From the sequence record JQ011317: a stretch of DNA of 44,784 bases; one strand, written 5' to 3'. This document shows, one piece after another, positions 135 to 35,611 of this stretch (positions are counted from its first letter, which is position 1; the number at the start of each line of letters is the position of its first letter). The translations under genes and the position numbers were made by a program. The stretch comes from Escherichia phage TL-2011b. Under the pieces are notes generated by a model. The model did not search any database and was not told where the DNA came from. It saw nothing but the letters and a program-made list of their open reading frames with translations.

Positions 135-149
135 TTACCTTAAAGGTAT
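135..149. promoter_or_regulatory. TTACC-N5-GGTAT palindromic operator-like site upstream of the integrase gene
   Basis: TTACCTTAAAGGTAT, one mismatch to the TTACC-N5-GGTAA motif; 43 bp upstream of the int start. Confidence 0.45.
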
Positions 150-191
150 ACTCTCATACCGTCATGAAAATGGTTTCTATACGGGTGAATT

Positions 192-1439
192 GTGCTTACC
201 GATACAAAATTAAAAAACCTCAAGCCGCAGGACAAACTGTACAAGGTCTCCGATCGTGACGGGCTGTATGTAGCTGTGCTTACGTCAGGCACGGTCTCGT
301 TTCGCTATGACTACCGTATCAACGGTCGCCGCGAAACACTGGTAATCGGGCAGTATGGGCGTGACGGTATCAGCCTGGCAGAAGCGCGAGAAGAACTGAT
401 TGCTGCAAAGAAGCTGCTTAAAGCAGGCCAGTCACCGGCTGCGGCTAAACGTGACGGTATCAAAAAGATTCGTGGTGCCGAGACGTTTGCGGTACATACC
501 GACAGTTATATGAAACATGTCATCCTGGCTGACAGTACCCGCGCAATGAAGCAGGCGGTGATCGACCGTGACATACTTCCGGTTCTTGGCAACAAAATGA
601 TGACTGAAATTACCACATCGATGGTTCGTGATTTGTGTGACCGGATTGTCGAACGCGGTGGTCGGGCAACAGCAGTGCAGGCCAGGGAGATCATCAGCAG
701 CGTATACCGTCACGCCAATGACCGTGGTCATGGTTTGTTTAATCCTGCGGCTGACATTAAACCTTCGTCTATCGCCATATTTAAACCACGAGAGCGAACA
801 CTGACACCAGAAGAAATTGGCCTGTTCTTCCGCACGCTGGATGCCATTGGTGCTATGGGCACTATGAAAATGGCTTTAAAGCTGGTGCTTATCACTATGG
901 TTCGTAAAGGCGAATTCACCAATGCAACGTGGGACGAAATAGATTTTAAAAAATGGACATGGACAATTCCTTCAGACCGCATGAAGGGAAGCCGGGCGCA
1001 TGTTATTTACCTGCCTAAACAGGCACAGGATATATTGGTCGGGTTGCAGATGTACGCTGGTGGAAGTGAATATCTGGTTCCTGGTCGTTACAACTTCCGG
1101 AAGCCATTATCTAATGCCGCGCTGAACTCTCTGATCGACAGAACGGTGAAAATAATAAATGAAGATGGTGAGCATATTCAGGACTTCACCGTACATGATA
1201 TGCGCCGTACAGCCAGTACGTTGTTGCATGAGGCTGGTTATCCTTCAGACTGGATTGAAAAGGCTCTGGCACATGAGCAGAAAGGTGTGCGCGCCGTATA
1301 TAACAAAGCGGAATACGCCAGACAGCGCGCCTACATGTTGCAGCAGTGGGCCGATATGATTGATTCCTGGATTGACGGGGAGCATACGGATCTGATTCCG
1401 TTCTCCCCGTCGAAGTTTGAGAAGTGGATGGCGGGATAA
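192..1439 (+). CDS. int: Tyrosine recombinase / phage integrase (P4-type)
   Basis: 415-aa ORF, GTG start after in-frame stop; C-terminal catalytic signature (HDMRRT ... VRAVYNKAEY); N-terminal arm-binding-type domain. Confidence 0.9.
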   Translation: MLTDTKLKNLKPQDKLYKVSDRDGLYVAVLTSGTVSFRYDYRINGRRETLVIGQYGRDGISLAEAREELIAAKKLLKAGQSPAAAKRDGIKKIRGAETFAVHTDSYMKHVILADSTRAMKQAVIDRDILPVLGNKMMTEITTSMVRDLCDRIVERGGRATAVQAREIISSVYRHANDRGHGLFNPAADIKPSSIAIFKPRERTLTPEEIGLFFRTLDAIGAMGTMKMALKLVLITMVRKGEFTNATWDEIDFKKWTWTIPSDRMKGSRAHVIYLPKQAQDILVGLQMYAGGSEYLVPGRYNFRKPLSNAALNSLIDRTVKIINEDGEHIQDFTVHDMRRTASTLLHEAGYPSDWIEKALAHEQKGVRAVYNKAEYARQRAYMLQQWADMIDSWIDGEHTDLIPFSPSKFEKWMAG

Positions 1440-1445
1440 TAACGT

Positions 1446-1640
1446 TTAATAGTTCTGCTGATTTTCTTCCATCTCGGCTTCTGCTGCCAGTGATTCAATT
1501 TTGTCTGCGAATATTGCTGACAGCGTTGCAAATTCAGCATCAGTGACAGCGGGAATTGGAACAAACCTGATCCCGCTGTGTGCAAGCATGTTTGCAGTTT
1601 CAAGGCATTTCCTTAAATCTGCTGGTGATGCCCTGTTCAT
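1446..1640 (-). CDS. Hypothetical small acidic protein (64 aa)
   Basis: ATG at 1640 overlaps the methyltransferase stop (ATGA coupling); last gene of the leftward operon. No family recognised. Confidence 0.4.
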   Translation of the reverse strand: MNRASPADLRKCLETANMLAHSGIRFVPIPAVTDAEFATLSAIFADKIESLAAEAEMEENQQNY

Positions 1641-2287
1641 GCTGCACGCTCCCGCCCCTGGTTGTCTGTTGGTGACAGCGGAGCATTGCTGAATGCATTT
1701 GTTAATCCGGCAATATCCAACGCGTATCCAGGGTGTAGTTGCACTGCCGGGTCTTCGCACTGATTACCCCAAACATCGAAGCCATGAGACGTCTGGCGGG
1801 CGAATAGTTCAATGCGAGAAACATCGCCTAACAATTGCACAAGTTTTTCACGAACAATATCTGGTTTTCTTGAATGCTCAAGCCGCGGTGCGGTAAATGA
1901 CTGAACGATCCCTGCATTAATGCGCGTAGGTAGTTTTCCCTTTACTGCAAACAGGCAATCTTCACTATTGGCGCGAGTCATGTGACCCATACCCATAACC
2001 AGTTTATCTGGTTGTCGACTACCACATTTTATCCACGTGAATCCCTTCATGGTCATCAGACGGAATCCCCAGGCTTCAACAACTTTTAGTGCTTCGAGTG
2101 GTTGTGTTGGCACCCACCACATGGCCAACAGACAGTTTTCATCGGCCAAATCCCACACAGGAAGGCGGCAGATATCCAGCACACTCATAACTGGATATTT
2201 AAAACCGGCACCGCGATTACCATCTGCGGCTTTGTCCCGGTATGCCCAGGGTGGATCTGCATAGATTAGTGTGTATTTCTTAGTCAT
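1637..2287 (-). CDS. MT-A70-family DNA N6-adenine methyltransferase
   Basis: Translation contains DPPW catalytic motif (LIYADPPWAY); ATG at 2287 (MTKKYTLIYADPPW). Confidence 0.75.
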   Translation of the reverse strand: MTKKYTLIYADPPWAYRDKAADGNRGAGFKYPVMSVLDICRLPVWDLADENCLLAMWWVPTQPLEALKVVEAWGFRLMTMKGFTWIKCGSRQPDKLVMGMGHMTRANSEDCLFAVKGKLPTRINAGIVQSFTAPRLEHSRKPDIVREKLVQLLGDVSRIELFARQTSHGFDVWGNQCEDPAVQLHPGYALDIAGLTNAFSNAPLSPTDNQGRERAA

Positions 2288-2546
2288 AAACCACCCCACA
2301 ACATCCTATGCCGCTATAGTCGCCACGGCGAAGGCCGTTACCTTTTGTGATACATTGGTCCCTGCGAACCGCGATCCTTGCACGCTCAACATCACCAGAA
2401 GCAACATCCATACACTGAAGCCAAAGGTGAGCGGCAATGCGGAACTGCCCTTTTTTCTCTCTTTCAATCGCGCGTTTTTCGATCTCTATCGCCGCAGGAG
2501 TAACGGCGACAATCTTTGACGGACTGCGCATTGAAACCTTGTTCAT
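2280..2546 (-). CDS. Hypothetical protein (83-88 aa)
   Basis: ORF translationally coupled to the methyltransferase; alternative ATG at 2531 has an AAGG Shine-Dalgarno. Confidence 0.4.
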   Translation of the reverse strand: MNKVSMRSPSKIVAVTPAAIEIEKRAIEREKKGQFRIAAHLWLQCMDVASGDVERARIAVRRDQCITKGNGLRRGDYSGIGCCGVVYD

Positions 2547-2813
2547 GTGATATTTTTCAAGTCGGCTTAACTTTCTCACTTAATCCAACCCTCTCTGAAA
2601 ATTAATGCCAGCAGATAAAGCCATGCTGAAACAGAGGCCAGGAATAAGTACCATCCTGACCATTTGCTCCAGTGCCTTAGCAGCGCACTCATGCAGCGTT
2701 GCTCACAGGACGATATACACCTTGCAGAACAGCAGGTCGTTTACCCTAGAACACCCCCGGGCACCCTGCCTGACGTTCATCAAGCCAACGAAAAACTGCA
2801 ACACGGGAAACCC

Positions 2814-2894
2814 ATGGCAAGCAGCTGGATTAACGGTGAAGTTATAACACCGGATAAACCGGAAATTCCCCTGCGCGCTCCATACGGTCGATAG
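2814..2894 (+). pseudogene. Orphan 5' fragment of a replication O-like gene
   Basis: 2800-2867 is about 85% identical to 6603-6670 (RBS plus first 17 codons MASSWI..VITPDKPEI of the O-like gene), then diverges and stops after 26 codons. Confidence 0.6.
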
Positions 2895-2952
2895 TGCTCC
2901 ATGACAGTGGCACCACCGCCAGGAGTTCCTTCTTACCTAATGCACCTTTCAT
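2842..2952 (-). CDS. AlpA-family HTH protein, apparently C-terminally truncated (36 aa)
   Basis: MKGALGKKELLAVVPLSWSTIDRMERAGEFPVYPVL matches the AlpA/Xis-like motif (L..SRSTIYR....G.FP) but stops where the O-fragment homology begins; GAGAGG Shine-Dalgarno 6 nt upstream. Confidence 0.4.
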   Translation of the reverse strand: MKGALGKKELLAVVPLSWSTIDRMERAGEFPVYPVL

Positions 2953-3001
2953 AAATACCTCTCTTGGTTGCAGTGCGGCGCGCGTGGCGCCGCGGTGGTG
3001 G

Positions 3002-3883
3002 TTACATAGATGTTTCGTTTAATTCTTCCCGACGAACGCTGTAAACGTCGGTGGCTTTTGCCAGCAGTTCGTCATCATCTGAAAGTTTTTGTGCAATGTA
3101 TTTGTAAGCCTTATCCAGTTCGGAGACAGTGCTGTAATTCATCGCTGCGCTGGTAAAGGCCATCAGCATTTCTTCTGGCTCACGGCTATCCGCTTTACGC
3201 GTTTGCTCATCAGGCTTTTTCACTGATTTAGCGTTGATCAGACTGTTCATTCCCGCAGCCGTAGTCATTTGCGGAGTAATGTCTCGCTCAACGCGCGGTG
3301 CCGTTTCCTGTAATTCGTCAGGGGTGTAAACACCGAGAAGTACATCAGGAGCGTGCAGGCGAGCCCATCGTTTCGTGCAAAGATAGGCGAGCTGCTGGCG
3401 CGGATCCTGTTCCCACAATGGAGAGTTACGCACTCCGGCTTGCGCCATACTGATGGTAAGCTCACGTGGTTCTGCTTCTCCTTTAAGAACTGCTGACACA
3501 GTTACCGTCAGATTCGGTGATTTATCTGTTTTGCCGTTAACATTCGACCAGTCACCGCTCCAGCGATAATTCAGGCGTGTCGCCAGCAGGCTGGAAGAGG
3601 ATACGACCGCGTTTACCAACTGTGCTTCGTAGCCTAACGTTCCGTTTACCACATGCGTTTTCTGCGCCACGGCGAACGGGTTCATTCCCCACTGTGCCGC
3701 CTGCATGGTCACCGCCAGGCAATCGGCAGGTTTGCCTTCAAGATGTTTCGGTACAGTCGCTTTGCTTTGTGACATCAACTCCGCGAAACGCACCAGTTGA
3801 TTCATGCCCTCGGGGCTGAAGATTGCCGCAGCAGTGCCTACAGTTGCGCCTGGTTGTGATGTGATTGCGATATCATTGCTCAT
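3002..3883 (-). CDS. recT: RecT-family single-strand annealing protein
   Basis: 293-aa ORF recognised as RecT/Red-beta-like; ATGA-coupled to the upstream exonuclease gene. Confidence 0.8.
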   Translation of the reverse strand: MSNDIAITSQPGATVGTAAAIFSPEGMNQLVRFAELMSQSKATVPKHLEGKPADCLAVTMQAAQWGMNPFAVAQKTHVVNGTLGYEAQLVNAVVSSSSLLATRLNYRWSGDWSNVNGKTDKSPNLTVTVSAVLKGEAEPRELTISMAQAGVRNSPLWEQDPRQQLAYLCTKRWARLHAPDVLLGVYTPDELQETAPRVERDITPQMTTAAGMNSLINAKSVKKPDEQTRKADSREPEEMLMAFTSAAMNYSTVSELDKAYKYIAQKLSDDDELLAKATDVYSVRREELNETSM

Positions 3884-4701
3884 ACATACATATCCTGTTT
3901 ACGTGCCCAGTCAGGACGTTTAATAATTTCCACTCCGCCCCATTCATCGTTGATGCGGCATTCGTGATAGGTATTCAGATCCCGGCGGAACAGAGCGTGC
4001 CCGGCATCGACATCCGGCACATCCAGCTCGAACACGCGTACCGGATACCGACCACAATCAATGCTTTCGCTCACGGCAAGAAAGAAAAAACCATGCGGCT
4101 GACCAGTAACCCTCATTGCGCCTTCGCGGTACATTGCGTCCTGCACGTGGTAGCGGAATTCCTCGATGTGACGTGCAAAACGCTCCATATCTGCAACCTT
4201 TTTCACGTCGACGATCACGTTGTGCTCGTTCAGCCATTTGTCTGGACGAATTCGGCACAACTCACCAGTCTCTTCATCGTTCCAGTACATTGACGCTTCG
4301 CAGTAACCAGGTGCTTCCAGCATCCAGCGTGCCGCCGGGTGAGCCATTGCGCTATCACGCATCAGCTCCAGTTTCCGCCACTGCTCGGCATCAAGTACCG
4401 TAATCCCCATATCCGCCACATCACGAAGAAATGCCTCTTCGTCAGCTTTACCTTGTTTCGTCCGACGATCGAATTTCGGTGAAACAATGAAGCGTTTGTC
4501 GAACTCTCCAGGCTCCAGAAGCAGACAGTGCAATGCGGTTCCCATATCCAGTGCAGACTTTTTCTCTTCGTCTTCTGGTGCTGCCTGAACCCATTTAAGA
4601 AGCGCCGGATTCTTGGCAACCATGTCAAGTTGCGACTTACTCACGCCGTCACCGGCGTGGTAGTCTTCGTTGCTGATGTCGAAATAAATTCCCGGTTTCA
4701 T
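3880..4701 (-). CDS. PD-(D/E)xK exonuclease, RecE/YqaJ-like partner of RecT
   Basis: 273-aa ORF starting MKPGIYFDISNEDYHAGDG with IVDVKKV motif; immediately upstream of recT. Confidence 0.65.
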   Translation of the reverse strand: MKPGIYFDISNEDYHAGDGVSKSQLDMVAKNPALLKWVQAAPEDEEKKSALDMGTALHCLLLEPGEFDKRFIVSPKFDRRTKQGKADEEAFLRDVADMGITVLDAEQWRKLELMRDSAMAHPAARWMLEAPGYCEASMYWNDEETGELCRIRPDKWLNEHNVIVDVKKVADMERFARHIEEFRYHVQDAMYREGAMRVTGQPHGFFFLAVSESIDCGRYPVRVFELDVPDVDAGHALFRRDLNTYHECRINDEWGGVEIIKRPDWARKQDMYV

Positions 4702-5171: not shown

Positions 5172-5248
5172 TTACCGTTTAGGTAATGATTATGCGTATC
5201 TGGTTTGATGTCAATAGATATGAGTTAAAAAAATTACCTGTAAGGTAA
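5172..5248 (-). promoter_or_regulatory. Leftward early promoter (pL-like) with two TTACC-N5-GGTAA operator-like sites
   Basis: Minus-strand -35 TTGACA (5214-5209) and -10 TAATCA (5192-5187); palindromes at 5234-5248 (upstream of -35) and 5172-5186 (at the start site). Confidence 0.5.
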
Positions 5249-5305: not shown

Positions 5306-5890
5306 TTATTGTTTGCTTTTTTCGTTCTGGCTGATGACAAATTCAATGTAACTTTCGATCTTTGCCTTCTCTGTTTCAGGTAACAATGCGTAGCGCGAGC
5401 GGTCATAGTTGATAGTTGCAGGGTCATGCGGGTGAATCAGTAGTTCATATCCGTGACGCCCGAATGCTGATGCAACATTCTCCAGGGTGGAAATGGAAAC
5501 GCTGACCTCATTGTTTAACAGGCGGCTAATTGTCACCTGGGCGACGCCGGATGCGCGGTGAAGTTTTCCCTGTGTTGAAAGGTCGCGGCTTTCGCTCATC
5601 CAGCGTTCCAGGTTGTGAGCCGCCAGCTGACCAATGTCGCTTGGTCCGACAGGCTGAACCCCCTCCTGAGAAAGCGAGCGATCGATATCAAGCCAGTTAC
5701 GGGGTTTATTGGCGGCAGCTTCAATTTTTCGCGCAACCTGGTCGCCGATAACCTTCTTGCCAAGAGCCCAGCGGTTTACCAGATTTGCCTGAGTTCCAAG
5801 TTTTTCTGCCATCCGCGTCTGAACACCATTGAATTCACGGTCGATCAAGTCGTTGAGATTTTGCCTGCGGACGTCCTGGATACTTTTCAT
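5306..5890 (-). CDS. Prophage repressor (CI-like), two HTH domains, no S24 peptidase domain
   Basis: 194 aa; divergent from the cro-like gene across a 154-bp operator region; two HTH-like segments; no Ser/Lys autocleavage module; no Shine-Dalgarno before ATG. Confidence 0.6.
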   Translation of the reverse strand: MKSIQDVRRQNLNDLIDREFNGVQTRMAEKLGTQANLVNRWALGKKVIGDQVARKIEAAANKPRNWLDIDRSLSQEGVQPVGPSDIGQLAAHNLERWMSESRDLSTQGKLHRASGVAQVTISRLLNNEVSVSISTLENVASAFGRHGYELLIHPHDPATINYDRSRYALLPETEKAKIESYIEFVISQNEKSKQ

Positions 5891-5945: not shown

Positions 5946-6019
5946 TTACCCAACAGGTAAATGCACCCCATAGGTAACTATCCTTGATTTTTGTTACCTT
6001 ATGGGTGAATATTTATTAT
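5946..6019. promoter_or_regulatory. Immunity-region operator/promoter (pR-like)
   Basis: TTACCCAACAGGTAA at 5946-5960; inverted repeat CCCATAGGTAAC ... GTTACCTTATGGG (5966-6006) over -35 TTGTTA (5991-5996); -10 TATTAT (6014-6019). Confidence 0.5.
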
Positions 6020-6044: not shown

Positions 6045-6275
6045 ATGAGCGATAACGGACATTTCGATTTCAAAAAGCACTGGCTTGCACTTACTCCGGA
6101 TGAGCGTGAAGCCTTCGCACAGGAAGCCGGAACGACGAGTCACTATATCCAGACTCACTTAACAGGTAAGCGCAAAATGCCAGGTAAAGTATTGATGAAT
6201 GGGCTTTTTAAAGCCTGTAAAACAAGACAATGGCTGCGCTCAAAAGCAGAACTGGCATACTTCTTCTACTCATGA
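6045..6275 (+). CDS. Cro-like HTH regulator
   Basis: 76-aa ORF divergent from the repressor gene; followed by terminator 6298-6319. Confidence 0.55.
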   Translation: MSDNGHFDFKKHWLALTPDEREAFAQEAGTTSHYIQTHLTGKRKMPGKVLMNGLFKACKTRQWLRSKAELAYFFYS

Positions 6276-6297
6276 TATCCAGCCACAAACCTCTGTA

Positions 6298-6319
6298 GAC
6301 CGCCATCCGGCGGTCTTTT
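6298..6319 (+). terminator. Rho-independent terminator after the cro-like gene (tR1-like)
   Basis: Stem GACCGCC / GGCGGTC, loop ATCC, then TTTT. Confidence 0.6.
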
Positions 6320-6423
6320 CATATCTATTCGCACCTTAAAGGTAATAAAAAACCAAATCTGGTTGATCAAATTTTCCAATTGTGCAAAATAGCCAATATC
6401 AATAACAAAAAGGGGCGGAAAAA

Positions 6424-8226: not shown

Positions 8227-8303
8227 TTACCTGATGGGTAACAAAATATTCTTATATCTATTGATTTTGTGCCTTATGTGGTTTTTAATTACCTTAGAGG
8301 TAA
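8227..8303 (+). promoter_or_regulatory. Promoter with two TTACC-N5-GGTAA sites upstream of the DUF1064-like gene
   Basis: Sites at 8227-8241 and 8289-8303; -35 TTGATT (8261-8266), -10 TTTAAT (8284-8289); second site overlaps the start site and RBS. Confidence 0.45.
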
Positions 8304-8306
8304 ATC

Positions 8307-8652
8307 ATGAGAAAACAGATACAGGCTCTTGGTCGACTCAAAACAGGCCAGATGAACAAAACAGAATCATGCGTATTGCCAGTACCTTGAGCAGCGTAAA
8401 CGTGCAGGGGAAGTCGCCTGGTATCGGTTCGAGGGTATCAAGCTGCGGCTGGCTGACAACACGTTCTATACGCCCGATTTTGCTGTGATGCTCGCCACCG
8501 GCGAGATGGAACTGCACGAAGTGAAAGGTTTCTGGACCGACGACGCCAGGGTGAAAACCAAAGTCGCCGCAGATCAGTATCCGTTCCGAATCATCGGGGT
8601 AACGGTTAAGCCAAAGAAAGCAGGTGGTGGCTGGAACATCGAAGAGTTCTGA
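8307..8652 (+). pseudogene. DUF1064-family phage protein, frameshifted
   Basis: ATG at 8307 reads MRKQIQALGRLKTGQMNKTES then stops at 8388; the family-like remainder (QYLEQRKRAGEVAWYRFEGIKLRLADNTFYTPDF...) continues in the +1 frame to 8652; one extra nucleotide near 8370-8373. Confidence 0.55.
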
Positions 8653-10831: not shown

Positions 10832-11172
10832 TGGACTATTCACAGTTAAGTGATTTTGAAATTAACAGAATGGTAGGAGACATAATTTTTAAAGGCCTTT
10901 GGGCATGTAAACCGGAAACATCAGGGAATAACACCAACAAATGGTATTACGGAAATGCTGATACAACTTTTGAGCCATTAACCCCTTTACCTGACTACTG
11001 CAATGATCCGATCGCTTCATGGCCGATTATTGAGAAATACAGGATTTCTATCTTAGACCAGTTAACTGAATGGTGTGTGGATGCAAAAGACGTAAGACCA
11101 ATATTTGATACCAGACCTCTCCGCGCCGCCATGATTGTATTTCTCATGATGCAGGAAAATCAGAATGGCTAA
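10831..11172 (+). CDS. Hypothetical phage protein (113 aa)
   Basis: ATG at 10831 overlapping the upstream stop (GTGATGG). Confidence 0.45.
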
Positions 11173-11503
11173 ATCAGCAGCAGAGCGCAAAGCCGCTCAG
11201 AGAGCCAGACAAGCTGCATCTGGTGTGCGTAAGATGGAGATTGTGCTTGATGCTCAGGAAATTGAAATGCTAGAGCGTAACTGTGCCACGCGTCGCCCCG
11301 GGCGTGCGCCTTACGAATTTGGTGAGTATATAGCGTCACTGATCCGCCAGGATGATGCACGCGTGCGCGGGCGTATAAAATCGATCAGCAGAAAACGTTG
11401 CGGTAAGTGCGGCGAGAGAGTTCCAGTTAATTCATGCCCGTGCAATGGTGACTCGCAATGCTGGGTGACTAAAGGCTGGCATGAAACGAAATTAATAGTG
11501 TGA
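11165..11503 (+). CDS. Basic protein with C-terminal zinc ribbon; candidate late-gene regulator
   Basis: 112 aa; Lys/Arg-rich N-terminus; C-terminal CGKCG...CPC; last gene before the terminator preceding terminase. Confidence 0.4.
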
Positions 11504-11511
11504 CATGTCAC
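11500..11511. repeat. Perfect 12-bp palindrome GTGACATGTCAC (copy 1)
   Basis: Overlaps the stop codon at 11501-11503; identical palindrome at 32282-32293. Confidence 0.6.
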
Positions 11512-11552: not shown

Positions 11553-11578
11553 GCCGCCAACTATGGCGGCTTTATTTT
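11553..11578 (+). terminator. Rho-independent terminator upstream of the terminase genes
   Basis: Stem GCCGCC / GGCGGC, loop AACTAT, then TTTATTTT. Confidence 0.65.
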
Positions 11579-11589
11579 GCATGGTACTA

Positions 11590-11622
11590 TTACCACAATG
11601 GTAACTATTACCACGGTGGTTA
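11590..11622 (+). promoter_or_regulatory. Tandem TTACC-N5-GGTAA-type sites before the small terminase gene
   Basis: TTACCACAATGGTAA (11590-11604) and TTACCACGGTGGTTA (11608-11622); direct repeat ACTATTACCAC. Confidence 0.4.
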
Positions 11623-12218: not shown

Positions 12219-13690
12219 CAGATACAGCGTTATCTCCTGAAGAGCAGTTAATCGAGGATATTGCAGGGTTCACTCACGATCCGCTTGGCTATGCCCTCTA
12301 TGCGTTCCCTTGGGGGGAAGAGGGGACTGAACTGGCACATGCCACCGGTCCACGTAAGTGGCAGGCTGATGCGTTCCGAGAGATACGTGATCACCTGCAG
12401 AATCCAGAGACGCGCTATCAGCCGCTTATGCTGGCACGTGCTTCGGGTCACGGCATTGGTAAATCCGCATTCATCTCAATGCTGATCAACTGGGGCATGT
12501 CCACTTGCGAGGATTGTAAGGTCGTGGTGACCGCCAACACCGACAACCAGCTACGAACGAAGACCTGGCCGGAAATTATCAAGTGGTCAAACCTTGCTAT
12601 CACGAAAGACTGGTTTACCTGTACAGCTACCGCGATGTACAGCAATGACCCTGGGCACGACAAGCGGTGGCGAGCTGACGCAATCCCCTGGTCTGAGCAC
12701 AACACTGAGGCATTCGCCGGACTACACAACGAGCGCAAACGCATCATCGTGGTATTCGATGAAGCGTCGAACATTGCCGATCTGGTGTGGGAGGTAGCAG
12801 AGGGTGCGCTTACGGACGAAGACACTGAGATTATCTGGGTGGCGTTCGGAAACCCGACGCGTAACACCGGGCGTTTCCGCGAATGTTTCCGCAAATATAA
12901 ACACCGCTGGAAAACTGCGCAGATTGACAGCCGGACGGTGGAAGGCACTAACAAACAGCAGTTGCAGAAATGGGTTGATGACTACGGGGAAGACAGCGAC
13001 TTCGTTAAAATCCGTGTGCGCGGCATATTCCCTGATGCATCTGAATTGCAGTTTATCCCTACCGGCCTTACTGACGAGGCAATGAAACGGGTGGTCACCG
13101 CTGCGCAGGTTGCACATGCTCCGGTGATAATCGGTGTTGACCCAGCATATTCAGGCGTTGATGACGCGGTGATATACCTGCGGCAGGGGCTACACAGTAA
13201 GGTGCTGTGGACTGGCAACAAGACTACCGACGATCTGATTATGGCGAAGCGTATCGCTGACTTTGAAGACCAGTATCAGGCTGACGCGGTGTTCATCGAC
13301 TTCGGTTACGGAACCGGTTTGAAGTCAATCGGTGATGGCTGGGGACGTACATGGCAACTTGTTCCGTTCGGCGGTGCGTCCACTGACCCGCAGATGCTTA
13401 ACAAGCGCGGGGAGATGTTCAACTCATGTAAGACATGGCTGAGGCTGGGCGGCATGCTGGATGACCAGGAAACTGCAGACGACCTGTCGGCGGCAGAGTA
13501 CAAAGTTCGTGTGGACGGTAAAATCGTTATCGAACCGAAGGAAGATATCAAGGAGCGGCTTGGGCGTTCTCCGGGTAAAGGCGATGCGCTACTGCTGACG
13601 TTTGCTTTCCCGGTCTCGAAACGCATAAATATACCAGGACAGCAAAGCCAGCAGGGAAGGGCCATAACGGATTATGACCCTTATGCTTAA
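12215..13690 (+). CDS. Terminase large subunit
   Basis: 491 aa, GTG start overlapping terS stop; Walker A-like ARASGHGIGKS. Confidence 0.85.
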   Translation: MTDTALSPEEQLIEDIAGFTHDPLGYALYAFPWGEEGTELAHATGPRKWQADAFREIRDHLQNPETRYQPLMLARASGHGIGKSAFISMLINWGMSTCEDCKVVVTANTDNQLRTKTWPEIIKWSNLAITKDWFTCTATAMYSNDPGHDKRWRADAIPWSEHNTEAFAGLHNERKRIIVVFDEASNIADLVWEVAEGALTDEDTEIIWVAFGNPTRNTGRFRECFRKYKHRWKTAQIDSRTVEGTNKQQLQKWVDDYGEDSDFVKIRVRGIFPDASELQFIPTGLTDEAMKRVVTAAQVAHAPVIIGVDPAYSGVDDAVIYLRQGLHSKVLWTGNKTTDDLIMAKRIADFEDQYQADAVFIDFGYGTGLKSIGDGWGRTWQLVPFGGASTDPQMLNKRGEMFNSCKTWLRLGGMLDDQETADDLSAAEYKVRVDGKIVIEPKEDIKERLGRSPGKGDALLLTFAFPVSKRINIPGQQSQQGRAITDYDPYA

Positions 13691-14123: not shown

Positions 14124-14231
14124 TATAAATCATCCTCTTTTTGAATCGAGATTAACCTCAGGAGATACTATGACATGTTTTTCATGTATGTCGTAATCTG
14201 CATCGATATCATAATTGTGACGTATCACGCC

Positions 14232-14419: not shown

Positions 14420-14496
14420 TGGCGTGGCATGCAGGATTCGAACCTGCGACCAACCGCTTAGAAGGCGGTTGCTCTGTCCAACTGAGCTAATGCCAC
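14420..14496 (-). tRNA. tRNA-Arg (anticodon UCU)
   Basis: 77-nt cloverleaf folded by hand: acceptor GTGGCAT/ATGCCAC, D-stem GCTC/GAGC, anticodon stem ACCGC/GCGGT with loop CTTCTAA, T-arm GCAGG-TTCGAATC-CCTGC, encoded CCA. Confidence 0.85.
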
Positions 14497-14818: not shown

Positions 14819-14833
14819 TTACCTGAAAGGTAA
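14819..14833. promoter_or_regulatory. TTACC-N5-GGTAA site in the tRNA-portal intergenic region
   Basis: TTACCTGAAAGGTAA, 91 bp upstream of the 14924 ORF. Confidence 0.4.
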
Positions 14834-14923
14834 TAATTTGTGCGTTAAATGTCAACTATCTACGATAAATAAATCATATGTGGTTAAATTGGTAATAATT
14901 TAATTGCGTACGGAGTCATTGAT

Positions 14924-19701: not shown

Positions 19702-20025
19702 ATGGAACTCGTAAACCTCAAAACCGGCACTGACAGCTACCAGGATGAGAGCGGAGAAACCAGAACTCGCGATGAATACCCATGGGGGCTGTGCATCACT
19801 CTTAATAACGACACATTGAATAAGCTGAAGGCGCAACCTAAGGGCGTCGGAACGGAAGTGATGATAACTGCAAAGGCTGTTATTCGAGGCCTGTCTGCCA
19901 GAGAAACTGACGATGGTGTCAATCGCAGCGCCGATCTGCAGATCACTGATATGGCGATCGCTCCTGTTTCCGGGGGTGTAGAAAAATCAGCGGCTGAAAC
20001 TCTGTACGGTAACGGAGGTGAGTGA
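19702..20025 (+). CDS. Hypothetical virion protein (107 aa)
   Basis: ATG at 19702 with AGGAG Shine-Dalgarno; coupled to the next gene. Confidence 0.4.
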   Translation: MELVNLKTGTDSYQDESGETRTRDEYPWGLCITLNNDTLNKLKAQPKGVGTEVMITAKAVIRGLSARETDDGVNRSADLQITDMAIAPVSGGVEKSAAETLYGNGGE

Positions 20026-20630
20026 TGGCCTCTGTAGTAGAGATCTGTAATCGTGCGCTGTCCAATATTGGCAACAGTCGCAGCATTAACAGCCTGACGG
20101 AAGCCAGCAAGGAAGCGGGGGAATGTTCGCTGCACTTTGAGGCCTGCCGTGATGCTGTTCTTTCTGATTTTGACTGGAACTTTGCTACCAAACGCGTGGC
20201 GCTTGCAGATACGAGCAATCCACCGCCTGACTGGGAATATGCGTACCAGTACCCGTCCGATTGTCTGCGCATTACTGAAATTATGCTTCCTGGTGTACGC
20301 AATCCAACAGCAGCAATGCGCGTTCAGTACGAAGTTGGTGCAGACACCAACGGAACAGGAAAGTTGATCTACACAGACCAGCCGCAGGCATGGCTCAAGT
20401 ATGTATCTCGCGTTTCAGATGTGAACATGTTTGATGCCATTTTTATGGAGGCGTTGGCCTGGCGTCTTGCGGCAGCTATTAACATGGCGCTGACTGGGAA
20501 TGCAGACCTCGGTACGTTTGCCCTCAATATGTACAATCGCGTGATTCTTAGTGCTGGCTCGCATAGCCAGAATGAATCACAGGAACCACAGCCACCGGTT
20601 GACGAGTTTACCATTGCGAGGTTGTCCTGA
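20025..20630 (+). CDS. Tail tubular protein A-like (T7 gp11 position)
   Basis: About 200 aa, directly before an 823-aa gene, mirroring T7 gp11/gp12; GGAGG Shine-Dalgarno. Confidence 0.45.
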   Translation: MASVVEICNRALSNIGNSRSINSLTEASKEAGECSLHFEACRDAVLSDFDWNFATKRVALADTSNPPPDWEYAYQYPSDCLRITEIMLPGVRNPTAAMRVQYEVGADTNGTGKLIYTDQPQAWLKYVSRVSDVNMFDAIFMEALAWRLAAAINMALTGNADLGTFALNMYNRVILSAGSHSQNESQEPQPPVDEFTIARLS

Positions 20631-30506: not shown

Positions 30507-30939
30507 CTATTCAGGTATTTCAATTCCAAAACCATCTGCATCCCATGAGTTTTCACAGATGATGTAACCTAGTTCATTGAGCTTATTAAATGTTTTTTCA
30601 AAGATGATCTGGTAATCATTATCTGCAAGTGATTCCAGTTCAAGGTCATTAAGGTTTATATAAAAACTTGTATGTCCAAGTGTTATTTTCTTATTAATTT
30701 CATTAAAGGTTCTTTTGAAAATAATATTTGATATTTCATGTCGTGCATTGTTTGCAATAATTTTTGCTTCATAAGCAGAAATTACGTCATCTTCATGAAT
30801 ATCTTTCAGAAAGCTGGTGTCAAGACGTTGTACTATTTCAGCGTTCATTGATCGCTTATTGGCTTTTGCAGAAATTTCTATTTTTTCTTTTACTTCAACG
30901 GGAAGTCTGATCCCTTAGTTGTGGATCTTCTCTGCTCAT
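30507..30939 (-). pseudogene. Mnt-like ribbon-helix-helix repressor gene with apparent +1 frameshift
   Basis: ATG at 30939 encodes MSREDPQL then stops; the downstream frame continues GIRLPVEVKEKIEISAKANKRSMNAEIVQRL, matching P22 Mnt (MARDDPHFNFRMPMEVREKLKFRAEANGRSMNSELLQIV); one extra base near 30915. Confidence 0.55.
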
Positions 30940-30995: not shown

Positions 30996-31044
30996 TTGAC
31001 ATCAATGACGCACGGTGTGACAATTATTTTGCCCCACGGTGGGG
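30996..31044 (+). promoter_or_regulatory. Pant-like promoter with Omnt-like palindrome
   Basis: -35 TTGACA (30996-31001), 17-bp spacer, -10 GACAAT (31019-31024); palindrome CCCCACGGTGGGG at 31032-31044 (core CCACGGTGG as in P22 Omnt). Confidence 0.55.
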
Positions 31045-31227: not shown

Positions 31228-31237
31228 AACAGCGAAG

Positions 31238-31250: not shown

Positions 31251-31299
31251 AGACCGTCAGGGCTTCAGTATCGTAAAACTACGTATAGGAATTAACGAC

Positions 31300-32244
31300 A
31301 TGACGAGTATAGCAACAGCGGTATCTACTATCAACGTGCCATTCCACGGCGCAGAGCTTTATGTTGTCAATCATAACGGCGAACCATACACCCCAATGAA
31401 ACCAGTCGTTGAAGGTATGGGGCTGGACTGGAAAACGCAGTTCCGCAAGTTGCAACAACGCTTTAAGAGCTGCATGGTCGAAATGACCATTCAGCTCCCC
31501 GGTGATACTCAGCGTCGTCTGGTTATCTGTCTTGCTTTACGCAAACTTGCAGGTTGGCTGCAAACCATCAGCCCTAACAAAGTCCGCCCTGAAATCCGCG
31601 ACAAGGTAATCCAGTATCAGGAAGAGTGTGACGATGTGCTCTACGAGTACTGGACTAAAGGCCATGTGGTTAACCCACGCAAAGCTAAAAAGGCGTTGCC
31701 GGGTAAAATAACAACTGAACAGCAGGAAGCCATTAAACAACTCGTCATGAGTCGCGGTCAGTCTCTGCCAAAAGAAAAACAGGCTAAGGCGATGATCACC
31801 ATGTGGTCGTCACTGAAATCTCATTTTGGCTGTTCGTACAAAGAAATTGGTGAAGATCAATTTGCCGAAGCGTTGTCTCTTGTTGCTCGGGTTCCGCTTG
31901 AAGGGGAGTATCTCCCTGCTGGATCTGCATCAGAGAATGATGAAGTGGCAGTCAAGATGTTAGATGCGCTTCGTGAGGCAATTAAAACACAGACAAAATG
32001 TTATGGTTATCCATTGAAGCCCGGCTACCGCAGTCTGATTCATTCTCCGTCTGGTGTTCTCGGTCTGACGGAGAACTCACTGCTGATGAATCTGCTGAAC
32101 CAGTTACAGGAAGACGGGCACGATGTATCGGGCGCGGCGGCGGAGCTGACCACCATGTTCTGTTACATCGTTGGTGTGAGCAAATGCCTGCGTGATATCC
32201 AGACGCACGCGGAGTACATCAACGACAAGGCAGGGTTCTTCTGA
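31300..32244 (+). CDS. Anti-repressor (Ant) family protein 1
   Basis: 314 aa; N-terminal antirepressor-type domain (INVPFHGAELYVVNHNGEPY); C-terminal 77 aa identical to the second Ant protein. Confidence 0.65.
   Translation: MTSIATAVSTINVPFHGAELYVVNHNGEPYTPMKPVVEGMGLDWKTQFRKLQQRFKSCMVEMTIQLPGDTQRRLVICLALRKLAGWLQTISPNKVRPEIRDKVIQYQEECDDVLYEYWTKGHVVNPRKAKKALPGKITTEQQEAIKQLVMSRGQSLPKEKQAKAMITMWSSLKSHFGCSYKEIGEDQFAEALSLVARVPLEGEYLPAGSASENDEVAVKMLDALREAIKTQTKCYGYPLKPGYRSLIHSPSGVLGLTENSLLMNLLNQLQEDGHDVSGAAAELTTMFCYIVGVSKCLRDIQTHAEYINDKAGFF
32008..32244. repeat. Inverted repeat arm A (3' end of ant1)
   Basis: Reverse complement is about 97% identical to 33420-33656 (3 mismatches in the first 84 bp compared by hand). 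Confidence 0.7.
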
Positions 32245-32281
32245 CGGGCGGCGGCACAGGGATGTGCAAAACGAAACTATC

Positions 32282-32293
32282 GTGACATGTCAC
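32282..32293. repeat. Perfect 12-bp palindrome GTGACATGTCAC (copy 2)
   Basis: Identical to 11500-11511; 14-bp extended versions are reverse complements of each other. Confidence 0.6.
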
Positions 32294-32294
32294 A

Positions 32295-32320
32295 GGCCGC
32301 TTTCGCGGCCTTGTTCTTTT
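32295..32320 (+). terminator. Rho-independent terminator after ant1
   Basis: Stem GGCCGC / GCGGCC, loop TTTC, then TTGTTCTTTT. Confidence 0.65.
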
Positions 32321-32480
32321 AACGAATGCCACCGCCGCCCGGGCGGGAATCCGCAGAACGCCCACCGCAGCGGGAGCCGTCAGCGGCAGTATCGCTGTCG
32401 TGCTGACAACGACCGGCAAAGGCCTGAGTTGAAGCTACCAGAGACAACAAAACGAACAGTGCAGCAAATGCTTTTTTCAT
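32319..32480 (-). CDS. Small secreted peptide (53-aa precursor), Gly/Cys-rich
   Basis: Textbook Sec signal peptide MKKAFAALFVLLSLVASTQAFA; predicted mature 31-aa peptide with two Cys. Confidence 0.45.
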   Translation of the reverse strand: MKKAFAALFVLLSLVASTQAFAGRCQHDSDTAADGSRCGGRSADSRPGGGGIR

Positions 32481-32550
32481 TGTGAAATTTCCATCTATAA
32501 GCCACCTCAATGTGGCGTCAATGAGTGTAGCACTGACTTTTGTTTCGTCC

Positions 32551-32574
32551 ACAAAAAAGCCCGCGCTGCGGGCT
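32551..32574 (-). terminator. Terminator of the minus-strand two-gene operon
   Basis: Stem AGCCCGC / GCGGGCT with plus-strand A-run (U-run on the minus transcript); overlaps the stop codon. Confidence 0.55.
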
Positions 32575-33118
32575 ATTCCTTCCATTTATCAGAAAAAAGA
32601 TCTTCTTCTAAAGGCATTGGTTCTGTTTTTGTTTTCTCAAAGAATTGATAACTGATAGTGATTGCTTCCTCTTTAAACTCTTCTTGCTCAGTTATGTTGT
32701 GAGCATCTGCGTCAACAAAAAACATAACCAGCGCATCACGATTGTGATTTACCGAATAAACTAAAAAGCAATCACTTGTTGGTATGCATTTTACTTGTAC
32801 AGACGCTATATTTTTCCATGCATCCCAAGATGATTTTTTACCAGTGTGTTTTTTATCACTATCTTCTGGAATATAGTCTTGGTTATCGACATGAGTATGC
32901 CTGACATTTAGTTTAAGCATTTCTGTCGGACGAGCAAATGCAGCATCTTTACCAAGAGATGGATGGTATCCCGTTTTCCAATACTGGGTAAAGGCATCAG
33001 ATACTTTCTTCAGCTCAAGATCAGATGCACAAAGGGCCGAGAAATTTTGCGTATGCAACACTCGACCCTTATATCTGACAACTTGATTTTTATCATTCTG
33101 CGACGCAGACGAACTCAT
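32573..33118 (-). CDS. Putative toxin, YafO-like (181 aa)
   Basis: ATG at 33118; blocks LGKDAAF, LNVRHTHVDN, CFLVYSVNH resemble YafO toxins as recalled; overlaps a small upstream ORF by 26 nt. Confidence 0.4.
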   Translation of the reverse strand: MSSSASQNDKNQVVRYKGRVLHTQNFSALCASDLELKKVSDAFTQYWKTGYHPSLGKDAAFARPTEMLKLNVRHTHVDNQDYIPEDSDKKHTGKKSSWDAWKNIASVQVKCIPTSDCFLVYSVNHNRDALVMFFVDADAHNITEQEEFKEEAITISYQFFEKTKTEPMPLEEDLFSDKWKE

Positions 33119-33272
33119 AATTTTCCTTATTGTTACGAGAATCAAAGAAAGCGCGGGATACGCGACTTGCGTGATCTTTTGTCATAGTAACTTTTACGTA
33201 CTCTACGCTTCCATTGAAAGAACGTCTTGCGGCAGCTTGCGCTCTACGCATCTGCAATTTTTCGTTTCGCAT
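33093..33272 (-). CDS. Small basic protein (59 aa), putative antitoxin/regulator
   Basis: ATG at 33272 with GAGGT Shine-Dalgarno 6 nt upstream; below the ORF-track cutoff; TTACC-N5-GGTAA site 61 bp upstream. Confidence 0.4.
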   Translation of the reverse strand: MRNEKLQMRRAQAAARRSFNGSVEYVKVTMTKDHASRVSRAFFDSRNNKENYEFVCVAE

Positions 33273-33332
33273 GACATTACCTCATATCTCATAAGTTCAT
33301 TACACGGATTAATAAAAATGAAACCAATCCGT

Positions 33333-33347
33333 TTACCCTTGAGGTAA
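33333..33347. promoter_or_regulatory. TTACC-N5-GGTAA site in the promoter of the toxin-antitoxin-like operon
   Basis: TTACCCTTGAGGTAA. Confidence 0.45.
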
Positions 33348-33419
33348 TAGTACGCTATTCACCCACAGTCTGCAATCTGTACAGAATTATTTAAAGGCAC
33401 ATCCCTGTGCCGCCGCCCG

Positions 33420-33656
33420 TCAGAAGAACCCTGCTTTGTCGTTGATGTACTCCGCGTGCGTCTGGATATCACGCAGGCATTTGCTCACACCGACGATGTA
33501 GCAGAACATGGTGGTCAGCTCCGCCGCCGCGCCCGATACGTCGTGCCCGTCTTCCTGTAACTGGTTCAGCAGATTCATCAGCAGTGAGTTCTCCGTCAGG
33601 CCGAGAACACCAGACGGCGAGTGAATCAGGCTGCGGTAGCCTGGCTTCAGCGGGGC
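33420..33656. repeat. Inverted repeat arm B (3' end of ant2)
   Basis: See arm A at 32008-32244. Confidence 0.7.
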
Positions 33657-34115
33657 GCTGTAGGTTTTGTTCTCTATCTTCATCGCCTGCATCACTGCTG
33701 ACGCCGTGGCGTTGGCTACCTGGTCGGCAACCATCTTTATGCGTTCTTCCTGCGGGAGCGAGTTTTTAATGTAACTTCCGGTGCGGCGGATCTGAGGAAG
33801 AACCTCACCTGTAACCCATTTACGAAAGCGGTAGGGGATAGTGCCTGGTGTCACCGCATCGCGGCAGCGGAGGATCAGTGTGTAGAGGCCTGACTCGGAG
33901 ATGATGATCGATTCTTGCTCACCGCCAGGGGTGTCGGTTGAAGCGACGCCCTTCTCATCATCATCAAGTTTTCGAACAGCATCTCGATGGTTTGCTATGC
34001 CTATAGCCCGACAAACATCTGAAGCGATAAACCATGGCTCACCATTAATGACGATTACCCGTATATCGGCTTGGGATTCGAAAGAAAAAATGGACGTGCT
34101 TTTTGTAGCTGTCAT
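33420..34115 (-). CDS. Anti-repressor (Ant/Bro-N) family protein 2
   Basis: 231 aa; Bro-N-like N-terminus (VIVINGEPWFIASDVCRAIGI); C-terminal 77 aa identical to ant1. Confidence 0.7.
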   Translation of the reverse strand: MTATKSTSIFSFESQADIRVIVINGEPWFIASDVCRAIGIANHRDAVRKLDDDEKGVASTDTPGGEQESIIISESGLYTLILRCRDAVTPGTIPYRFRKWVTGEVLPQIRRTGSYIKNSLPQEERIKMVADQVANATASAVMQAMKIENKTYSAPLKPGYRSLIHSPSGVLGLTENSLLMNLLNQLQEDGHDVSGAAAELTTMFCYIVGVSKCLRDIQTHAEYINDKAGFF

Positions 34116-34384
34116 AGTGGTTACCTTTTAGTCTGGTTAATCACCACTACCGACGCCAATCGGTTGGTGGTGAACTGTGCAGGGTTGGCGTAACCGGCTA
34201 AAAGGACCCGGCGCACCTTTCGGTGCCCCCACACAGCCCACCATAATACGAATGTGGCCGTGCTATACGCATAAAAAAACCGCTTGCGCGGTGAATGCGC
34301 CTTTTAGTAATCCGGGACGCCAATCCCGGCACTGGATTTTTCCAGTGCCCGATTACTATGGCACAAGAGGAGTGCGATGTAAAT

Positions 34385-34492
34385 TTACCGCAAAGGTAAT
34401 GATAAGCGCGGGGATATATAAAAATCAACCGTATTTGGTTGGTGGCGTTTAACGCTTGATCACCTGAAAGCAAGATATTACCTTTAAGGTAA
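34385..34492. promoter_or_regulatory. Two TTACC-N5-GGTAA sites in the 400-bp noncoding region upstream of ant2 and the zinc-ribbon membrane protein gene
   Basis: TTACCGCAAAGGTAA (34385-34399) and TTACCTTTAAGGTAA (34478-34492). Confidence 0.45.
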
Positions 34493-34512
34493 TGTTATTG
34501 TGAGGAAAAGCA

Positions 34513-35241
34513 ATGGAAGTTTTCTGGATAGTTGTTGGTGTGGTTGCGGTGATTATTTACGTTATCAACCAGAACAAGACTAAGATCTCTGATCGTACGG
34601 TCGTTAATCATAACAAAACGATAAAGACCGAAGATGGGGAGATAACGATTAATCGTACACAGGTGATAGAACACACCTCTACTCAGTTTCAAAAAACTGG
34701 AGGTAATGCGCCTAATATTTCCGCACCTCCTGCTTATGATAGTGCGGTAATCCAGACATATTATAAACAGCAGGAGTTAGCAAAAGAGAGGCAACTGATT
34801 CAGCCAAAGCCATTTACAGCAGAGCTTCCACCTGGAGTGTCAACGCGTCCGGCATATCATGGAAGATTCCCTGGTGATGACGTATCGTCTCAGTCACCTA
34901 AAAAAGCACCTCAGGCAGTATCAGAGCCAGCAAGAATACCTTCTGTATCGCCGTCAAAAGAAGAATCAGCTAACGAAGTTTCAAGTGCCCGCAAGCAGTG
35001 TTTGCGATGCAGAATAAACCTTCCATATGAAAAATTCAGGAAATCGTCAAAAAATCCAGATGGATTGACTAAGTGGTGTGCAAGGTGTCTCGATGGCCCA
35101 AAGAATACACGTCATATGAAGTGGTGCCCAATTTGTAATGTCCGCAGAAAACGAACCAGCTTTTACCCTAATAATCAAAATGCGGATGGCTTAATGGCAT
35201 GGTGCAAAACGTGCTGGGACGAGCACAAAGCGAAACGATAG
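34513..35241 (+). CDS. Membrane-anchored protein with two C-terminal Cys4 zinc-ribbon repeats
   Basis: N-terminal TM helix, Pro/Ser-rich linker, two repeats of C-x2-C ... DGL-x3-WC-x2-C. Confidence 0.5.
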   Translation: MEVFWIVVGVVAVIIYVINQNKTKISDRTVVNHNKTIKTEDGEITINRTQVIEHTSTQFQKTGGNAPNISAPPAYDSAVIQTYYKQQELAKERQLIQPKPFTAELPPGVSTRPAYHGRFPGDDVSSQSPKKAPQAVSEPARIPSVSPSKEESANEVSSARKQCLRCRINLPYEKFRKSSKNPDGLTKWCARCLDGPKNTRHMKWCPICNVRRKRTSFYPNNQNADGLMAWCKTCWDEHKAKR

Positions 35242-35264
35242 GCCGCTCTTGCGGCCTTTTCTTT
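35241..35264. terminator. Terminator shared by convergent genes
   Basis: Stem GGCCGC / GCGGCC, loop TCTT, then TTTTCTTT. Confidence 0.55.
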
Positions 35265-35520
35265 ATGTGGTTTGTTTTCGTAGTTGTTCGGCACAATAGT
35301 CGAGATGTGTTTGCAGATCCTGCATAGACATCTGTGAGCTGGTGACGTAGTTAATCAGTGCAGTCAGTTCGGCAAGTGGGCCATCGACATTAAATCCATC
35401 CTTATCGAGATCCCGGAGTAATTTCATCAAGTGCGATCCCTCCACCAGTGATCTGACGCCTCCCGGCGTGTGAATCCTTTCGGTAAATCCGTCTTCCAGT
35501 GGATAGTGATACTGCTGCAT
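35263..35520 (-). CDS. Stand-alone Ant C-terminal-domain protein (85 aa); candidate LexA-controlled antirepressor (Tum-like)
   Basis: ATG at 35520 with GGAGAAG Shine-Dalgarno; diverged homologue of the C-terminal domain shared by both Ant proteins; LexA box 20 bp upstream. Confidence 0.55.
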   Translation of the reverse strand: MQQYHYPLEDGFTERIHTPGGVRSLVEGSHLMKLLRDLDKDGFNVDGPLAELTALINYVTSSQMSMQDLQTHLDYCAEQLRKQTT

Positions 35521-35538
35521 CTTATCTTCTCCATGCAA

Positions 35539-35560
35539 TAACTGTATAAATATACAGTAG
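35539..35560. promoter_or_regulatory. LexA (SOS) box
   Basis: AACTGTATAAATATACAGTA: CTGT-N8-ACAG with AT-rich spacer, close to the LexA consensus. Confidence 0.75.
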
Positions 35561-35596
35561 CAAATAATTTGTTTGCTATCCAGCACGTTTTGCGAA

Positions 35597-35611
35597 TCAC
35601 CTGAAAGGTAA
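35597..35611. promoter_or_regulatory. TCACC-N5-GGTAA site upstream of the tailspike gene
   Basis: TCACCTGAAAGGTAA, one mismatch to the recurring palindrome. Confidence 0.35.

Follow-up and report, generated by a model that had tools for sequence, protein, structure and literature searches.

The Rep-Ant-LexA switch of Salmonella phage SPC32H (genus Uetakevirus; PDB 5D50/5D4Z) is the closest described system to the one considered here. According to secondary summaries, SPC32H Rep is built from three domains, which serve DNA binding (N-terminal), dimerisation (middle) and tetramerisation with Ant binding (C-terminal), the Rep tetramer binds palindromic DNA, and tetrameric Ant disassembles Rep (PMC9638917, PMC9986798). 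We analysed a stretch of 44,784 nucleotides from Escherichia phage TL-2011b (record JQ011317; "the window" below means this whole 44.8-kb stretch), in which the 15-bp palindrome TTACC-N5-GGTAA recurs. The window carries an E. coli prophage of the podovirus genus Uetakevirus that resembles phiV10 and ε15. A sequence-only reading had proposed that a single regulator controls early, late and accessory promoters through this palindrome. The core of that idea is supported by the comparisons reported here, and the regulator is very probably the repressor of the prophage, Rep.

The prophage resembles SPC32H in that the Rep proteins are homologous over their full length, the Ant proteins share about 88% identity, ant is preceded by a LexA box and the SPC32H genome carries the same palindrome at matching relative positions. 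The absence of a recognised S24 peptidase domain from Rep, the location of ant beside the tailspike gene and the position of the LexA box over the predicted ant promoter also suggest a switch of the SPC32H type. The window differs from SPC32H in its host, E. coli, and in its Rep, which is only about 42% identical. It also encodes two extra, larger proteins with Ant-like C-terminal domains, one of them behind a putative Rep operator, has operator-bearing accessory cassettes and is missing the operator at the lysis promoter. Binding of the palindrome by a Rep tetramer and its release by Ant are reported for SPC32H, and by analogy would apply here. A second precedent is the RefSeq record of Salmonella phage ε15 (NC_004775.2), where seven sites of the form (A)TTACC-N5-GGTAA(T) are labelled "protein_bind: repressor": before terS, before gp3, in the gap between gp19 (ant) and the tail fibre gene, at the left operator (OL; three sites) and after the replication genes. 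The seven labels compare with about 14 sites that we found in ε15 and about 16 in the window, and the ε15 record has no labels at the right operator (OR), int and lysis-promoter sites. Because ε15 already annotates the same sites, we regard the window as a further example of the Uetakevirus Rep/Ant/LexA system that is already known.

Repressors with dispersed operators are also known elsewhere. Phage P1 has one immunity repressor, C1, with 22 dispersed operators (PMC8546580), and its antagonist Coi acts by inactivation and not by cleavage. P1 differs in having asymmetric 17-mer operators, and its repressor has no evident relationship to Rep, although the two were not compared directly. The Cluster A mycobacteriophages (L5, Bxb1) likewise carry repressor sites genome-wide (PMC6550527, PMC9283540), but these stoperators are asymmetric, oriented with transcription, mostly located off promoters and block elongation (PMC6550527); their consensus diverges with the repressor, giving separate immunity groups. 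The window sites, in contrast, are palindromic, lie at promoters and are invariant though Rep proteins range from 42 to 98% identity. As in λ, inverted-repeat sites lie over the divergent rep/cro promoters and over the leftward early promoter, but they are not restricted to the immunity region, since eleven further sites lie elsewhere. The tetrameric looping repressors (λ CI at OL-OR, LacI and Rco of pLS20) are similar in combining a tetramer with paired operators, and the C-terminal domain of Rep has the fold of the Rco tetramerisation domain, which drives DNA looping by Rco (PMC9986798). They differ in that the window pairs are only 62 bp apart and bracket one promoter, across which Rep may bridge them.

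Statistics of the repeated palindrome

Ten perfect copies of TTACC-N5-GGTAA are present in the window, while 100 dinucleotide-preserving shuffles gave a mean of 0.03 and a maximum of 1. With up to one mismatch allowed, 14 copies were found against 0.60 expected. We also built a position weight matrix from 39 sites taken only from other phages (ε15, Enterobacter phage Tyrion, Klebsiella phage BUCT711 and SPC32H). This matrix placed 14 window sites at or above 10 bits, whereas 200 first-order Markov simulations averaged 0.33 such sites and never exceeded 3. In a de novo count of all 5+gap+5 palindromes, TTACC-N5-GGTAA ranked first by a wide margin. Every copy lies within the prophage (about 1-41267), of which 90.7% is coding according to homology mapping, yet 12 of the 14 sites are non-coding (binomial P=3e-11). 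The remaining two, at 11590 and 11608, are coding only by virtue of an N-terminal extension of terS in the RefSeq/PGAP annotation. The distance from a site to the next start codon ranges from about 2 to 270 bp.

These results establish that the repeated palindrome is genuine and that chance is excluded. Chance or compositional repetition, or descent from a mobile repeat, in either case with no regulatory role, has nothing in its favour except the repetition itself. The excess of perfect copies (10 against 0.03), their non-coding placement and the conservation of positions and spacings across genera leave this explanation a negligible probability.

The sequence-only reading had anticipated this excess over chance, and its ten perfect copies were all recovered at the coordinates that it gave. 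Both the matrix scan with simulated controls and the shuffles bear out the enrichment, and the outcome that would have spoken against it, a motif equally common in shuffled or coding DNA, was not seen. Its list of one-mismatch copies needed amendment: the copies are at 135, 5994, 11608 and 35597, so that three of its entries stand, whereas 6331-6345, a genuine but weak site, has two mismatches, and 5994-6008 (TTACCTTATGGGTGA) had been missed. The matrix gives 10.2 bits to 6331 and 8.4 bits to 11608, and the top background match reaches 7.0 bits. The description of all copies as intergenic holds for the 12 sites outside mapped coding sequence and fails for 11590 and 11608 if the annotated terS extension is accepted, and the interval of about 20-240 bp to a start codon proved too narrow.

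Putative operators around rep and their probable binding protein

The rep gene (5306-5890, minus strand) encodes a repressor of 194 amino acids (aa) with an N-terminal helix-turn-helix (HTH) DNA-binding domain and a C-terminal dimerisation/tetramerisation part. In a phmmer search of the PDB it matched the SPC32H Repressor (5D50_A, E=6.6e-42, query 1-190 against chain 2-197). Pfam matches to Rep were limited to HTH_3, HTH_26, a LacI-type HTH, YdaS and HTH_31, and an S24 peptidase domain, associated with RecA-dependent self-cleavage, was not found by Pfam. A gene for a 76-aa Cro-like HTH protein (6045-6275, plus strand; phrog_35 "transcriptional repressor", E=5.6e-13) is divergent from rep. The palindromes around these genes have an OL/OR-like layout at sigma-70-like promoters: three occupy the gap that separates rep from the divergent cro gene, and a further two come directly after rep. 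Because the palindromes flank rep as OL and OR would, because Rep is homologous to the SPC32H repressor and because ε15 labels such sites as repressor-bound, we assign them with considerable confidence to the prophage's own immunity repressor as its operators. The same three observations favour the earlier proposal of one regulator with a dispersed regulon. Furthermore, overexpression of either the repressor or the Bro-N antirepressor of ZX5 alters the lysis-lysogeny balance (PMC9782041), which is the shift that a Rep/antirepressor mechanism predicts; the ZX5 repressor is 98.5% identical to the window Rep.

At OL, two perfect copies bracket a leftward pL-like promoter (-35 TTGACA at 5214-5209, -10 AATCAT at 5191-5186). 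The proximal operator (5172-5186) spans about -7 to +8, and the distal operator (5234-5248) is centred at about -62, 62 bp from the proximal one; the pair is spaced by 62/63 bp in phiV10, ε15, Tyrion, BUCT711 and SPC32H as well. The arrangement recurs after the replication genes, where perfect distal (8227-8241, centred at about -62) and proximal (8289-8303) operators flank a promoter with -35 TTGATT at 8261-8266 and -10 TTTAAT at 8284-8289, and this pair has 62-bp spacing in all six phages. The spacer of the proximal copy holds the Shine-Dalgarno sequence GAGG of the DUF1064 gene (ATG 8307). The earlier account of the pL-like and DUF1064 promoters, with one copy upstream of the -35 and one over the start site, was correct. 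At the pL, post-replication and Bro-N promoters (the last is described below) the operator begins on the final T of the -10 hexamer, so that it covers about -7 to +8. Since a tetramer has two pairs of DNA-binding domains, one Rep tetramer could hold both sites of a 62-bp pair and clamp the promoter between them. Separately, the DUF1064 gene (8307-8652) has a 1-bp insertion near 8369 relative to phiV10 and thus appears frameshifted, either as a pseudogene or through a sequencing error.

The three OR sites (5946, 5963 and 5994) are spaced by 17 and 31 bp. Nearest rep is a perfect copy (5946-5960) over the -35/spacer of a candidate leftward rep promoter. The middle site (GCACCCCATAGGTAA, 5963-5977) is degenerate, with two mismatches and a score of 5.0 bits, which is within the background range; ε15, SPC32H and BUCT711 have a perfect middle site in the syntenic position, 17 bp from the first. 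Nearest cro, the one-mismatch copy at 5994-6008 lies over the -35/spacer of a rightward pR-like promoter (-35 at 5991-5996, -10 at 6014-6019). Beyond cro, the weak operator GCACCTTAAAGGTAA (6331-6345, two mismatches) follows the cro terminator (6297-6316) and precedes the replication genes, and counterparts with one mismatch occupy the same relative position in phiV10, Tyrion, BUCT711 and the HCM-28C-2 prophage. The int operator (TTACCTTAAAGGTAT, 135-149) scores 15.7 bits with one mismatch. Its fixed "mismatch" T (GGTAT) contributes to a -10-like hexamer, TATACT at 146-151 (TATAAT in ε15), and the GGTAT variant also stands before int in phiV10, ε15 (as GGTATAAT), Tyrion and SPC32H. The complete tally is about 16 sites in ten regulatory regions, with 11 sites beyond OL/OR at int, replication, post-replication, terS, portal, accessory and ant/tailspike positions.

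The Cro-like protein might be the main reader of these palindromes, or might share them with Rep and so lower the early and accessory promoters in lytic growth. The protein has an HTH and falls in a "transcriptional repressor" family, its gene diverges from rep across the three OR sites, it has weak similarity to the HTH of the Rep DNA-binding domain, and in λ both Cro and CI act on the same operators. The candidate recognition helices are different, SHYIQTH in the Cro-like protein and ANLVNRW in Rep, and if the Cro-like protein alone bound the palindromes, the immunity repressor would have no operators; joint use of the sites would be consistent with Rep as the principal reader. Taken together, we consider such a role for the Cro-like protein possible but rather doubtful.

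The stretch NLVNRW of the Rep helix is identical in five phages, and the putative recognition helix, N-L-(V/I)-(N/S)-R-W, is almost unchanged across 86 Rep homologues, a near-invariance that fits an operator without variation. Conservation is 54-56% in the DNA-binding domain and 40-44% elsewhere in Rep. The same palindrome accompanies even the two helix variants that diverge most, NLVSRW (E. coli) and NLISRW with an insertion (Serratia). No enriched palindrome of this kind was found in Pseudomonas phage PseuP_224, which encodes a distant N-terminal homologue of Rep.

An operator shared without change by phages of Escherichia, Salmonella, Klebsiella, Enterobacter and Serratia, though their Rep proteins are only 42-54% identical, could in principle be the site of a conserved Enterobacterales transcription factor that the phages exploit. 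The Rep helix, however, is as invariant as the motif, and the sites cluster at rep/cro as a classical OL/OR. Furthermore, about 17 kb of host flank from four loci held no perfect copy, while the density in the prophage predicts about 4 (P=0.015, in a small sample). To our knowledge, no E. coli factor has a TTACC-N5-GGTAA consensus. A host factor is therefore very improbable, and Rep remains the favoured reader of the palindrome.

Late and accessory promoters and the antirepressors

Upstream of terS, a perfect operator (11590-11604) abuts an extended -10 element (TGgTACTAT, 11582-11590), and a second one with one mismatch (11608-11622), 18 bp from the first, contains the terS Shine-Dalgarno sequence GGTGG (ATG 11625). 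This 18-bp pair is kept in phiV10, ε15, Tyrion and L002. RefSeq (phiV10) and PGAP start terS at TTG 11544, which gives an extension holding a terminator hairpin (11553-11570) as well as the two operators, whereas the ε15 and Tyrion records begin terS at MPAEPK, equivalent to window ATG 11625. RefSeq and PGAP thus place the terS start too early. The portal operator (14819-14833, perfect) lies upstream of the gp3/portal structural operon, and its ε15 counterpart (2931-2947) is labelled as repressor-binding. Between ant and the tailspike gene, the ant/tailspike operator (35597-35611) is a one-mismatch TCACC variant centred at about -62 of the candidate ant promoter; the ε15 equivalent (19895-19911) carries the repressor-binding label too.

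Three sets of accessory genes have an operator: a YafO-like pair, a Bro-N/Ant-domain fusion and a 242-aa gene. The first operator (33333-33347, perfect) precedes leftward genes for a 59-aa protein and a YafO-like protein (33272 back to 32573), and L002 has the same cassette and operator, at 12688. The second (34385-34399, perfect) abuts the -10 of a leftward promoter (-35 at 34428-34423, -10 TATCAT at 34404-34399) that faces the Bro-N/Ant-domain gene, and phiV10 has a syntenic operator at 20497. The third (34478-34492, perfect) is 20 bp before an accessory gene of unknown function (34513-35241, phrog_6762). Directly abutting it, the degenerate palindrome TCACCTGAAAGCAAG (34463-34477, three mismatches) may be a decayed tandem operator. 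If repressed by Rep, these accessory genes are presumably silent in the lysogen. The sequence-only reading was right that accessory cassettes carry the palindrome, but its term "moron operons" is misleading, because at least one guarded gene is of antirepressor type and is part of the switch itself. The lysogenic-conversion gene, an O-acetyltransferase gene (37880-38986, plus strand), has no operator.

A different element was observed at late promoters. The block CCATAT(G/A)TGGTT, accompanied by a -10-like element, precedes the portal operon (14875-14897), the tailspike gene (35641-35663) and the lysis cassette (39271-39296). It is nearly invariant in five phages, with a variant at 8274-8283 inside the post-replication promoter, and looks like a family-specific late-promoter element or activator site. 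phiV10, ε15, Tyrion and SPC32H have an operator about 35 bp upstream of the lysis-promoter block; in the window (39130-39345 examined) it is missing, and only a TCACC half-site remains near 39184. The operator before the lysis genes was lost through replacement of the neighbouring O-antigen module by the plus-strand O-acetyltransferase gene.

The palindromes at late operons might, alternatively, bind a phage late-gene activator and not a repressor. The portal and tailspike palindromes have no overlapping sigma-70 promoter, and their distance from the likely start point, about 62-70 bp on the upstream side, is typical of activators. Set against this, the late sites have the same sequence as OL/OR, and the CCATAT(G/A)TGGTT block, which marks late promoters, is the better candidate for an activator site. 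The lysis promoter, moreover, has kept the block but not the palindrome. We regard an activator role for the late palindromes as improbable, and repression by Rep as the more plausible function of these sites also.

ant (35263-35520, minus strand; start placed by tblastn; the neighbouring tailspike gene is at 35716) encodes an 85-aa antirepressor that matches 5D50_E "Anti-repressor protein" in a phmmer search of the PDB (E=4.1e-47). A perfect LexA box (CTGTATAAATATACAG, 35542-35557) lies over the -10-like TATATT (35554-35549) of the ant promoter, 22 bp before ant. Phages phiV10, ε15, Tyrion and SPC32H have the box too, at a fixed spacing from the Rep operator. The ant promoter therefore shows the Rep operator in the "distal" -62 position and the LexA box in the "proximal" position, a spacing kept in five phages. 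The sequence CTGTTCGTATTTATGG beside the 35597 site was considered as a LexA box and rejected, as the scan put the perfect box at 35542. In SPC32H, ant is reportedly LexA-controlled, as described by Kim and Ryu in 2013.

Two further proteins share the Ant-type domain, which makes three in all: Ant, a Bro-N fusion (33420-34115, minus strand) and a P22_AR_N fusion (31300-32244, plus strand). The C-terminal parts of both fusions are 44-46% identical to the phiV10 Ant homologue (44% for the Bro-N protein). The Bro-N protein (Pfam Bro-N, E=2.3e-21) is the product of a second antirepressor-type gene, and lies behind a putative Rep operator.

These elements can be combined in a model. In the lysogen, a non-cleavable, tetrameric Rep of the SPC32H type would occupy about 16 sites in ten regions. 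Rep would thereby shut off int, the leftward and rightward early operons, its own promoter region, the replication genes and the post-replication operon, and also terS-terL, the portal/structural operon, the tailspike/ant region and three accessory cassettes. Where the operator covers -7 to +8, as at the pL, post-replication and Bro-N promoters, bound Rep should exclude RNA polymerase. Induction would proceed without Rep cleavage: DNA damage would remove LexA from the box in the ant promoter, and Ant would be made, bind Rep and release all operators at once. This release would unmask the Bro-N/Ant fusion gene, which is predicted to be under Rep control, and so may lock in the decision by positive feedback.

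Several observations weigh against Rep as the reader of every site or against so simple a switch. With its operator lost, the lysis promoter indicates that a late promoter can do without direct Rep binding. At OR, the strongest site (5946) lies over the candidate rep promoter and not over pR, which is unexpected for a simple switch. The portal and tailspike operators are about 45-55 bp upstream of the separate conserved block and, together with the 242-aa-gene operator, were found to overlap no promoter in a search for the sigma-70 consensus. Finally, since operator and recognition helix are both invariant, covariation cannot tie the motif to Rep.

Conservation of the operator across genera

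A scan of related prophages, which had been suggested as a check, detected the same palindrome at matching positions in phiV10, ε15, SPC32H, Tyrion, BUCT711 and a Serratia prophage. The motif recurs with its positions and spacings in phiV10, the HCM-28C-2 prophage, ε15, SPC32H, Tyrion and BUCT711, and likewise across the early regions of an E. coli Rep variant and the Serratia prophage. The half-sites do not differ between phages whose Rep identity ranges from 42 to 98%, and positions and spacings are conserved across genera, in contrast to a variable 5-bp spacer and variable flanks.

We searched IMG/VR for two palindromes 61-63 bp apart, and the matches listed came from at least 120 contig stretches, mostly on contigs of about 38-43 kb. 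Among these listed matches, most contigs had two modules, with a median distance of 3.1 kb (3,055 bp between the two in the window), and the spacing within a module was 62 bp in 164 cases, 63 bp in 27 and 61 bp in one. The -35 position reads TTGAxx in about 131 of the 133 unique 62-bp modules among the matches listed, and in these modules the first T of the proximal operator is also the last base of the -10-like hexamer. This fixed module (distal site, -35, -10 and proximal site, with 62 bp between the two operators) could serve as a tight SOS-inducible expression cassette.

Rep homologues in Escherichia, Salmonella, Klebsiella, Enterobacter and Serratia, down to 42% identity, are accompanied by the same operator, and Ant too shows about 88% conservation. 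One tentative interpretation, which we put forward as somewhat less than an even prospect, is that the operator is "frozen": with operators spread over about 15 promoters, divergence of immunity would be too costly, and ε15-like phages would form a single immunity and induction group across genera. If true, this would be the reverse of the situation in lambdoid phages and Cluster A mycobacteriophages. It would also imply that the CCATAT(G/A)TGGTT late promoters depend on a phage factor, because the prophage tolerates a lysis promoter without a Rep operator.

Dispersed operators are conserved across Uetakevirus and known in P1 and the Cluster A mycobacteriophages. To call such a regulon unusual for a prophage repressor, as had been done, was thus an overstatement of a family trait, and the general understanding of phage repressors is unchanged, since dispersed repressor regulons were already known. 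What is modestly new is the full list of sites, the fixed 62-bp promoter module, the operators at accessory cassettes, the invariance of the operator across genera and the use of operator bases as -10 or ribosome-binding sequence. The result is a complete, testable operator map for a common E. coli prophage family: a near-full-length relative occurs in about 290 of 5,426 complete genomes.

Several neighbouring features were recorded. The prophage is integrated at the 3' end of guaA, with the attR core ATTGAGTGGGAATGATT at 41251-41267; the attP core is reported in the ZX5 paper (PMC9782041). The segment 29853-31340 resembles the P22 immI region, with an Arc-family gene (30510-30911, minus strand) facing the P22_AR_N antirepressor gene and strong divergent promoter-like sites at 30996 and 31334. 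The TTACC palindrome was not found in this segment, which is therefore probably controlled separately. A tRNA-Arg(TCT) gene (14420-14496, minus strand) lies between terL and the portal operon, as it does in SPC32H and the HCM-28C-2 prophage. A second perfect palindrome, GTGACATGTCAC, is present at 11500-11511 and 32282-32293, with weaker copies at 14217 and 16873. It marks the 3' ends of operons immediately before rho-independent terminators, and one copy overlaps the stop codon of a gp49-like regulator gene (11165-11503). Perfect copies of GTGACATGTCAC occupy the same relative positions in phiV10, ε15, Tyrion, BUCT711 and SPC32H.

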